Of a DNA stretch of 64,000 nucleotides, positions 17,509-50,268 are shown piece after piece. The stretch is from Candidatus Aenigmatarchaeota archaeon (GTDB taxonomy: Archaea; Aenigmatarchaeota; Aenigmatarchaeia; QMZP01; QMZT01). The notes under the pieces were generated by a model, which saw only the letters and a program-made list of their open reading frames with translations, was not told the DNA's origin and made no database searches. The stretch covers positions 1-64,000 of the forward strand of contig JBGPQP010000002.1 of assembly GCA_041489155.1 (NCBI GenBank), read 5' to 3'. Every line of letters begins with the position of its first letter. Position 1 is the first letter of the stretch. The translations under genes were made by a program, and so were the position numbers.

Positions 17509-17619
17509 GTCCCGGTAGCTCAGTCGGTAGAGCGTTCGGCTGTTAGGTGCCTGAAAGCGTCGGAGACGCTTTCCTTCGCCGAAACCGAAAGGTCGCCGGT
17601 TCGAACCCGGCCCGGGACG
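17509..17619 (+). tRNA. tRNA-Asn(GTT) with 38-nt intron at 37/38 (17546-17583)
   Basis: Acceptor GTCCCGG/CCGGGAC, anticodon stem TTCGG/CCGAA, CT-GTT-A, TTCGAAC T-loop; hairpin intron with relaxed BHB. Confidence 0.92.
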
Positions 17620-49751: not shown

Positions 49752-49921
49752 TGGGCCCGGCGGGAATCGAACCCGCGACCCCCAGATATCTTTCCGCACC
49801 GTATTCTGTCATCAACAAAAACGCAGACCTACACAGGTGAAACCTGTGTCATGCGCTTGTTTCAGCATACTTTTATCCAACAGATAAAAGTCTGGTGCTC
49901 TACCGATTGAGCTACGAGCCC
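49752..49921 (-). tRNA. tRNA-Lys(TTT) with 97-nt intron at 37/38 (49788-49884)
   Basis: Acceptor GGGCTCG/CGGGCCC, anticodon stem CCAGA/TCTGG, BHB helix CTTT/AAAG. Confidence 0.92.
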
Positions 49922-49962
49922 ACGAAGCGAAAGGCACAGGCTTCGCCTATATGCCAATCACA

Positions 49963-50035
49963 CGCCCTGGCCGGGATTTGAACCCGGGTCCTCGGAGTGA
50001 CAGTCCGAGATGATAGACCACTACACTACCAGGGC
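49963..50035 (-). tRNA. tRNA-Asp(GTC)
   Basis: GCCCTGG/CCAGGGC acceptor, CT-GTC-AC loop, TTCAAAT T-loop. Confidence 0.95.
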
Positions 50036-50153
50036 ACCGTATTTAGCTTGTGCTTGTTTGCCAGTGTTATATGTATTATTTCTAATCGAGTCCGATATTT
50101 ATAAGTTTAACAAACACAGAAAGCCAAAAAGCAAAAAGGATAAAATTAACAGT

Positions 50154-50268
50154 AGTGAGCAGCTATCTGGATTTCCCCCTTTTCAGGAGTACTTTCCAGA
50201 CCGCCGGGGAGTTTAACTTCCGTGTTCGAAATGGGAACGGGTGAACCTCCCCACTTTGGCCGCTCGTA
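50154..50268 (-). rRNA. rrf: 5S rRNA (stand-alone; ends approximate)
   Basis: GAGCGGCCAAAG...CCCGTTCCCATTTCGAACACGGAAGTTAA...AGTA...GCTGCTC; terminal helix GAGCGGC/GCTGCTC. Confidence 0.9.

Follow-up and report, generated by a model that had tools for sequence, protein, structure and literature searches.

Analysis of the window, the 64,000-nt stretch of an Aenigmatarchaeota contig (JBGPQP010000002.1, positions 1 to 64,000), confirmed that the intron of its tRNA-Lys(UUU) gene carries a real and conserved module of an antisense element and a K-turn hairpin. The intron is very probably a methylation guide directed against its own tRNA, and by its layout it is a putative one-K-turn form of the known tRNA-Trp intron guide. 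The explanation that we consider probable combines an ordinary, protein-spliced archaeal bulge-helix-bulge (BHB) intron with a half-size box C/D-type guide aimed at its own precursor, for which U34 would be the more likely target.

The tRNA-Lys(UUU) gene (49752..49921, (-)) was recovered with the Rfam model RF00005 (59.4 bits), whose alignment contains an insertion of about 98 nt after tRNA position 37, and ARAGORN in intron mode called a tRNA-Lys(ttt) with a 97-nt intron. Exon 1 (49885-49921, (-)) comprises tRNA positions 1-37, the intron occupies the 37/38 position (49788-49884, (-)) and exon 2 extends over 49752-49787 (-). We number the intron from i1 to i97 (49884..49788). A permissive Rfam search of the tRNA-Lys locus detected the tRNA model alone and revealed no snoRNA or sRNA family. 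A 5S rRNA gene (50154-50267, (-)) and a tRNA-Asp gene (49963-50035, (-)), followed by tRNA-Lys 41 nt further on, lie head-to-tail within 516 nt (49752-50267, (-)); the three genes are probably a single transcription unit. The window contains another intron-bearing tRNA (17509-17619, (+), 61.1 bits, intron of about 38 nt), which ARAGORN labelled Tyr(gta) and whose loop, CUGUUA in our reading, suggests GUU; no K-turn was seen in its intron. The host genome has a size of 1.13 Mb and is 89.65% complete.

From 5' to 3' the intron consists of UCUGUUG, GAUAAAAGUAUG (i8-19), CUGA (i20-23), a hairpin (i24-71), UGAUGA (i71-76) and CAGAAUACGGUGCGGAAAGAU, and this order of motifs agrees letter by letter with the original prediction. 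Recalculation also reproduced the pairing proposed there, in which a 12-nt segment adjoining CUGA on its 5' side pairs with C28..A37, i1 and i2 except for one mismatch (i17 A opposite G30), as well as the count that places G15, the fifth nucleotide upstream of CUGA, opposite C32. By our own arithmetic, which is not a tool output, the chance of 11/12 matches over about 70 possible registers is near 1.5e-4. Canonical C/D guides have an antisense element of 10-12 nt directly 5' of box D or D', with the target at the fifth pair. The duplex that co-varies in the Lys intron comprises 9 bp, and its start lies at a distance of 4 nt when measured from the 4-nt 'box' and of 2 nt when measured from a paired UG. 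Its guide strand, GAUAAAAGU, corresponds to i8-i16 (49869..49877, (-)), and its target strand (49883..49891, (-)) to A31, C32 (49890), U33, U34 (49888), U35, U36, A37, i1 and i2, with A13 (49872) opposite U34 and G15 (49870) opposite C32. The adjoining nucleotides (49866..49868, (-)) are i17, a purine mismatched with G30, followed by U18-G19, which form a 2-bp helix with C77-A78 and provide its 5' strand.

BLAST searches against 41 relatives revealed homologous introns, from which 13 tRNA-Lys(UUU) genes of 13 genomes were extracted, aligned with MAFFT (alignment A1) and used to build a covariance model (R1). In A1 pairing reaches 98.2% over the guide helix and the first four pairs of the hairpin. 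Both partners change at 31:i16 (A-U in 7, G-C in 6), at i1:i9 and at each of the four stem pairs; the score was not matched in any of 500 shuffles, and slid controls were 35-47% paired. The co-variation expected among the tRNA-Lys introns of relatives is present in both the guide helix and the hairpin stem. Searches with R1 detected the module in 71 of the 91 genomes of the host's order, usually as one copy each; these include 20 of the 23 high-quality genomes and represent 39 of the 45 genera. Out of 74 matches 70 were retrieved, namely 69 rows from 68 genomes, all of which open with R-CUUUUA, and a match in G081 that is a tRNA-Leu(UAA); three of the remaining four are Leu(UAA) or partial. 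A larger alignment of 71 rows (A2), which was fitted to the model and so favours helices 1 and 3 but not the UG:CA helix, showed 98.8% pairing of the guide helix, P1 and C-stem, changes on both sides in 11 of 15 pairs, no shuffle of 500 that reached the score and 37-51% pairing in slid controls. Across the 71 rows, 99.0% of the guide-helix pairs are standard, and 31:i16, i1:i9 and i2:i8 co-vary. The antisense element was expected to be conserved, and its AAAAG core is invariant in 69/69 rows.

The module was also traced outside these matches. G011, which has no R1 match, contains a degenerate copy, and a degenerate-pattern search of a contig collection revealed one true relative with the same module (L095) among the matches listed, the others being chance matches in AT-rich bacteria. 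Among the sequencing runs searched, no RNA run with the locus was listed. In contig fragments from four DNA runs, relatives keep exon 1, the guide and CUGA, and divergence begins in the hairpin; one of these contigs has a 70-letter intron in place of 94 skipped letters. Many relatives (L030, L016, L007, L010, L015) have a tRNA-Lys gene interrupted by additional introns, which lie in the D-arm, at 30/31 and in the T-loop, and the number of introns differs between genera.

A K-turn consists of a C-stem, a 3-nt bulge, tandem sheared G.A/A.G pairs and an NC stem; a hairpin with a 3-nt bulge and GA has this geometry, which is of the L7Ae binding-site type. In the Lys intron the hairpin (49814..49861, (-)) is formed by the C-stem A24-A28/U67-U71, whose four outer pairs all co-vary, and an inner stem, and the bulged strand (49807..49813, (-)) by the bulge G72 A73 U74, G75 and A76 for the G.A pairs, and C77 A78. 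Among the 69 distinct Lys rows C32-A37, the AAAAG guide core, U18, A23, U74, G75 and A78 are invariant, and A76 (A in 66/69), C77 and G79 nearly so. The intron contains an internal C'/D'-type K-turn or K-loop: its stem co-varies, its 3-nt bulge ends in U, and a GA stands opposite an invariant A. Invariance holds for the C-stem, the bulge and the 1b.1n G.A pair; at 2b.2n, A.G is seen in 34/69 rows and 2n is G in 36/69, so that the second G.A pair is not conserved. The NC stem has 2 bp and lies beyond two unpaired nucleotides on the non-bulged strand. The conserved hairpin bears out the K-turn geometry that had been read from CTGA and TGATGA, with the correction that the first U (U71) is part of the stem and not of a box, since comparison with relatives set the register of the C-stem. 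The reading of CUGA (49862..49865, (-)) as a D' box did not hold: A23, its last letter and K-turn position 1n, is the only invariant one; i20 is a pyrimidine throughout, i21 mostly U, and the third letter, i22, is G in 36 rows, U in 21, A in 9 and C in 3.

The hairpin that separates A23 from the bulge differs freely in sequence and length (about 10 to 70 nt) and retains its outer pairs. Hairpins of relatives measure 13-24 nt, and introns of same-genus relatives 70-73 nt; the 97-nt length found here is due to an extra hairpin (i32-i54; 49831-49853, (-)) absent from these relatives. This 23-nt insertion, CAUGACACAGGUUUCACCUGUGU, lies in the apical part of the K-turn hairpin and by eye nearly matches a hairpin that G021 (L009) has in its Lys(CUU) intron. 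A loose motif of GA, hairpin, NNN and GA has 7345 candidates in the genome and 5378 in the reversed sequence; being this common by chance, boxes alone prove nothing, and the weight of the argument rests on conservation. No second conserved K-turn was found in the intron in the 69 Lys rows. One built from G8-A9 and G75-A76 was rejected, as many relatives have no GA at i8-9, and so was a box 'CUG' pairing with 'CAG' after the GA, as the box varies while CAG is constant.

Canonical archaeal C/D sRNAs have a terminal C box (RUGAUGA) and a D box (CUGA), with a K-turn closed by the RNA ends. The intron ends, which had been taken for degenerate outer C/D boxes, are instead strands of the outer splice helix and are not conserved as boxes: the candidates 'UGUUGG' and 'CGGA' vary among relatives (CAGA, CAGG, or absent), the helix is CUGU/GCGG here and CUG/CAG in minimal relatives, and among the relatives compared no GA pairs are conserved at the intron ends. 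An archaeal BHB intron has a 4-bp helix between two 3-nt bulges that hold the splice sites. In our hand-drawn model of the Lys intron, C32-U35 pair with A92-G95, and the bulges are U36 A37|U1 and A96 U97|A38. The 3' half of this motif (49787..49796, (-)) consists of GCGG, the outer helix partner of i2-i5, of AAAG (i92-95), the central helix partner of C32-U35, and of the bulge A96 U97 | A38; the central helix is 95.2% paired in A1. The 'second spacer' CAGAAUACGGUG (i77-88; 49797..49808, (-)) has CAGAA as its only conserved part. Within it, a GGUG(C) element between the K-turn and the 3' splice helix (49797-49801, (-)) is conserved only in family f1 (A1 genera g1 and g6), where it is complementary to tRNA 24-28 (GCACC) and could pair with tRNA 25-28.

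As had been proposed, the antisense pairing excludes the splice helix, so that a guide located in an anticodon-loop intron pairs with its own anticodon arm at the expense of the BHB. The guide helix forms in the predicted minimum-energy fold (-64.1 kcal/mol), and a fold with the BHB enforced is feasible at -58.1 kcal/mol. The guide also co-varies with i1 and i2, which are contiguous with A37, and its substrate would therefore be the unspliced precursor; for the same reason a circularised intron, suggested before as the active form, is unlikely. In the mechanism that we propose, L7Ae would bind the K-turn, the non-canonical stem of which would be closed by the 2-bp helix U18-G19/C77-A78, and would recruit Nop5-fibrillarin. 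Fibrillarin might then 2'-O-methylate one anticodon-loop nucleotide while the loop is held in the guide helix. Opening of this helix would allow the competing splice motif to form and the intron to be cut out.

Five other tRNA introns of the host genome (G000) have the same layout. By the linear count the fifth nucleotide falls on C34 in tRNA-Trp (C13:17026-17172, (+)), on U34 in tRNA-Glu(UUC) (C10:27289-27425, (-)) and tRNA-Gln(UUG) (C4:39060-39272, (+)) and on U39 in tRNA-Thr(UGU) (C20:4956-5105, (-)); for tRNA-Leu(UAA) (C3:95075-95214, (+)) U34 was read by hand, because the script chose a palindromic alternative. Including Lys, the fifth guide nucleotide thus falls on 34, 39 or 32 in six tRNA species, and these positions are classical ribose-methylation sites. 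The Trp, Glu, Gln and (by hand) Leu(UAA) guides address the 5' strand of the anticodon arm, with nucleotide 2 pairing with position 31; the Lys guide does so in the structural register only (see below). The Lys(CUU) introns of the relatives L009 (G021) and L022 (G011) also bear a K-turn hairpin. The element upstream of this hairpin pairs, as read by eye, with the 3' splice site and positions 38-45, with U39 at the fifth position.

The host genome encodes the methylation machinery on whose presence the original prediction depended, fibrillarin and Nop5, and L7Ae in addition. Its fibrillarin gene is split over two contig ends (C11:5-430, (+), and C7:3-221, (-)), which is an assembly break and, as far as visible, not a broken gene. 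Fibrillarin scored above the cut-off in 83/91 genomes of the order and in 23/23 high-quality ones. The SpoU family, which includes TrmJ and TrmL, had no match in the host genome (89.65% complete) and was above the cut-off in 1/41 relatives; the stand-alone TrmJ that could have accounted for methylation at C32 was accordingly not found in this genome. The sole FtsJ match was rejected as FtsJ and is a generic class-I methyltransferase. Elp3 was not above the family cut-off in the same 89.65% complete genome, two PP-loop ATPases are present, and the wobble-uridine modification set of the host may be reduced. A strict four-box C/D search of the whole genome gave no match; a loose C...D search gave 43, which on inspection were mostly coding ATGATGA starts and do not show canonical sRNAs.

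The nucleotide addressed by the Lys guide depends on where its duplex begins. In the 69 rows i19:i77 is G:C in 62, A:U in 5 and G:U in one, with one gap, and i18:i78 is U:A in 69/69. Since the UG:CA helix is absent from R1, the fit to the model cannot have generated this co-variation. The five rows with A:U represent at least four genera, and tRNA position 28 is still C in every one of them, so i19 does not track the tRNA; U18-G19 pair with C77-A78 within the intron and not with C28-A29, and pairing with the tRNA begins at position 31. In addition, the purine mismatch of i17 with G30 is kept in all relatives compared, and another intron splits nucleotides 30/31 in 5/13 of the relatives' tRNA-Lys genes, where nucleotides 28-30 are therefore not contiguous with the target. 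The pairing of guide nucleotides 1-3 with tRNA 28-30, as drawn originally, is not supported on these grounds. We infer that the paired UG is the equivalent of the D'-box positions 4n/3n, with i20-i21 as a 2-nt loop-out of the non-bulged strand; no precedent for a looped-out dinucleotide was found among described C/D features. Counted from this helix, the predicted layout becomes canonical, with guide nucleotide 1 unpaired, nucleotides 2-10 pairing with 31-37, i1 and i2, and nucleotide 5 (A13) opposite U34.

The distance between the nucleotide pairing with 31 and the stem supports this register. Among Lys introns, 68 rows have 7 nt, and G072, where the two extra nucleotides are missing, has 5 nt; in Leu(UAA) introns the distance is 5 nt in the host genome and 7 nt in G068, G072, G081 and G084. 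Twelve tRNA-Trp genes were recovered after two chance regex rows had been dropped, nine with 5 nt and three with 7 nt, and the 7-nt type reads GUA-UAGA followed downstream by GA-UAG, which gives A19:U77. As Trp and Leu(UAA) occur with both spacings and position 34 is their known or predicted target, the economical reading is that both spacings address 34. This favours U34 over C32, and we estimate U34 to be about twice as likely a target as C32.

The alternative, closest to what was first proposed for this intron, takes CUGA as a D' box and the full 12-nt pairing with tRNA 28-37 and two intron nucleotides as the guide, so that C32 would be selected and the intron would replace the missing TrmJ for Cm32. 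Its linear arithmetic is correct, the distance between the G pairing with C32 and the invariant A is identical in 68/69 distinct rows, and Cm32 is a known archaeal modification, ascribed in the available text of PMC2584109 to a predicted SpoU-type enzyme in Haloferax, a family with the sparse record given above. With the linear count on a known Haloferax site and TrmJ missing, C32 keeps some plausibility; we nevertheless judge it unlikely. The CUGA that defines its count is not conserved, guide nucleotides 1-2 pair within the intron while C28 stays where i19 is A, and nucleotide 3 is always mismatched, so that the duplex would begin just one pair before C32, next to the intron inserted between 30 and 31 in 5/13 relatives. 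The long spacing, moreover, also occurs in Trp and Leu(UAA) introns whose short-spacing homologues point to 34. The earlier assignment of C32 is thus right as a linear count and doubtful as a target.

Two further explanations dispense with a guide acting on its own precursor or with methylation altogether. The K-turn with L7Ae and the antisense element might do no more than cover the 5' splice site and the anticodon loop, acting as a folding chaperone or as a timing switch by which splicing, or other modifications of the anticodon loop, would be held back until maturation of the precursor is otherwise complete. Such a role would fit the exclusion of the BHB by a guide helix that is the predicted energy minimum, the coverage of the 5' splice site with co-varying i1 and i2, and the lack of site specificity of single-K-turn complexes in vitro (PMC1635284, in its available part). 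It leaves unexplained why the spacing between antisense element and K-turn is fixed over 68 genomes and why the fifth nucleotide falls on 34, 39 or 32 in six tRNA species, and the homologous tRNA-Trp intron is an experimentally shown guide in other archaea according to the excerpted text of PMC7994747 and PMC4090602; we regard masking without methylation as improbable. A role in trans of the excised, possibly circular intron as a stable small RNA that acts through the second spacer CAGAAUACGGUG is, in our estimate, very improbable. Circularisation is known for archaeal introns, and there are circular C/D RNAs (PMC7994747 and PMC3491384, as far as their text was available), CAGAA is conserved, and so is GGUG within f1. 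The spacer is, however, missing in minimal relatives such as L030 and L016 and in most f5/f6 rows, no D-type box follows it, the joined intron ends form no new box, and a genome-wide search for its complements with at most two mismatches revealed 64 sites against about 85 expected, with no target above chance. The cis-acting guide in a BHB intron therefore remains our preferred explanation.

An extension of this guide reading to the whole order is more tentative. It supposes, as one joint proposal that is possible but far from assured, that tRNA introns are retained because they are modification guides; that Lys-UUU, Glu-UUC, Gln-UUG and Leu-UAA, the split-box U34 tRNAs, together with Trp would each guide wobble-ribose methylation on their own precursors; that these guides would replace lacking protein-only enzymes (TrmJ/TrmL-type SPOUT, true Trm7/FtsJ and Elp3, not found in G000); and that, with the substrate tethered in cis, one K-turn would be enough. 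If true, it would describe a minimal, self-contained system of decoding fidelity and a selective reason for intron retention. Intron-borne guides are documented for tRNA-Trp and suspected for one tRNA-Met; Lys, with Glu, Gln, Leu, Thr and Trp in the same genome, would widen this range considerably and, if true, give many long tRNA introns of DPANN archaea a concrete function. The natural pair of spacings (five versus seven nt, with the UG:CA bridge) also offers a ready test of how the enzyme measures distance.

Among known systems, the euryarchaeal pre-tRNA-Trp guide of Haloferax volcanii and its Pyrococcus counterpart sR50 (Clouet d'Orval 2001 and Singh 2004, as described in the available text of PMC7994747 and PMC4090602) is closest. 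Its intron guides Cm34 and Um39, and C34 of tRNA-Trp is an experimentally established intron-guided site in other archaea (PMC7994747, excerpted text). Both modules lie in a 37/38 intron of the targeted tRNA, and in both the D'-type K-turn strand is preceded on its 5' side by a guide that base-pairs to the anticodon loop. Both also have a pairing that excludes the splice motif, would act on the unspliced precursor, and depend on L7Ae, Nop5 and fibrillarin, known here as encoded genes. The Lys module differs in its host tRNA, Lys(UUU), and in having one K-turn and one guide where the Trp intron has a C/D plus C'/D' pair of K-turns and two guides, for 34 and 39. Its D'-like box is degenerate and offset by two extra nucleotides bridged by the co-varying UG:CA helix, and its guide helix is a tight intramolecular hairpin with a loop of 3-8 nt in most relatives. 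C32 is likewise a real tRNA methylation site in Haloferax (PMC2584109, available part). The accessible text of a 2014 review calls tRNA-Trp a unique example (PMC4090602), and no tRNA-Lys intron guide was found in the searchable full-text literature, a scope that mostly excludes subscription journals. What the present analysis adds is the Lys(UUU) case, the conservation over the order and the reading of the register.

The 66-nt intron carried by the elongator tRNA-Met of Nanoarchaeum equitans (PMC3491384, in the text available) shares with the Lys module a DPANN host and an intron location of its C/D-like element, in which the boxes are imperfect and the hairpin is stable; it resides in a different tRNA, and a stable C/D-like RNA was seen there by RNA-seq. 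The Pyrococcus C/D sRNAs, which in the excerpted text of PMC7994747 are directed at position 34 of Leu(UAA), Leu(CAA), Met and Trp (the Leu(UAA) site being predicted), use the same enzyme on the same kind of site, a wobble ribose, as predicted here. Unlike the Lys module, they come from independent genes, contain four boxes and work in trans on other molecules.

With one K-turn and one guide, the Lys module resembles the synthetic 'hemi' complexes of Hardin and Batey 2006 (PMC1635284, available part), which were active but not site-specific, two K-turns being needed for specificity. This speaks against reading the single K-turn of the Lys intron as sufficient for site-specific methylation, and the guide reading, if true, would challenge the in vitro rule. 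The hemi particle is artificial, and in the available description it is active only at high salt and without site specificity; the Lys module is natural and order-wide. A natural one-K-turn design conserved over an order implies that specificity either comes from elsewhere, such as the tRNA body, the hairpin loop or dimerisation, or is relaxed.
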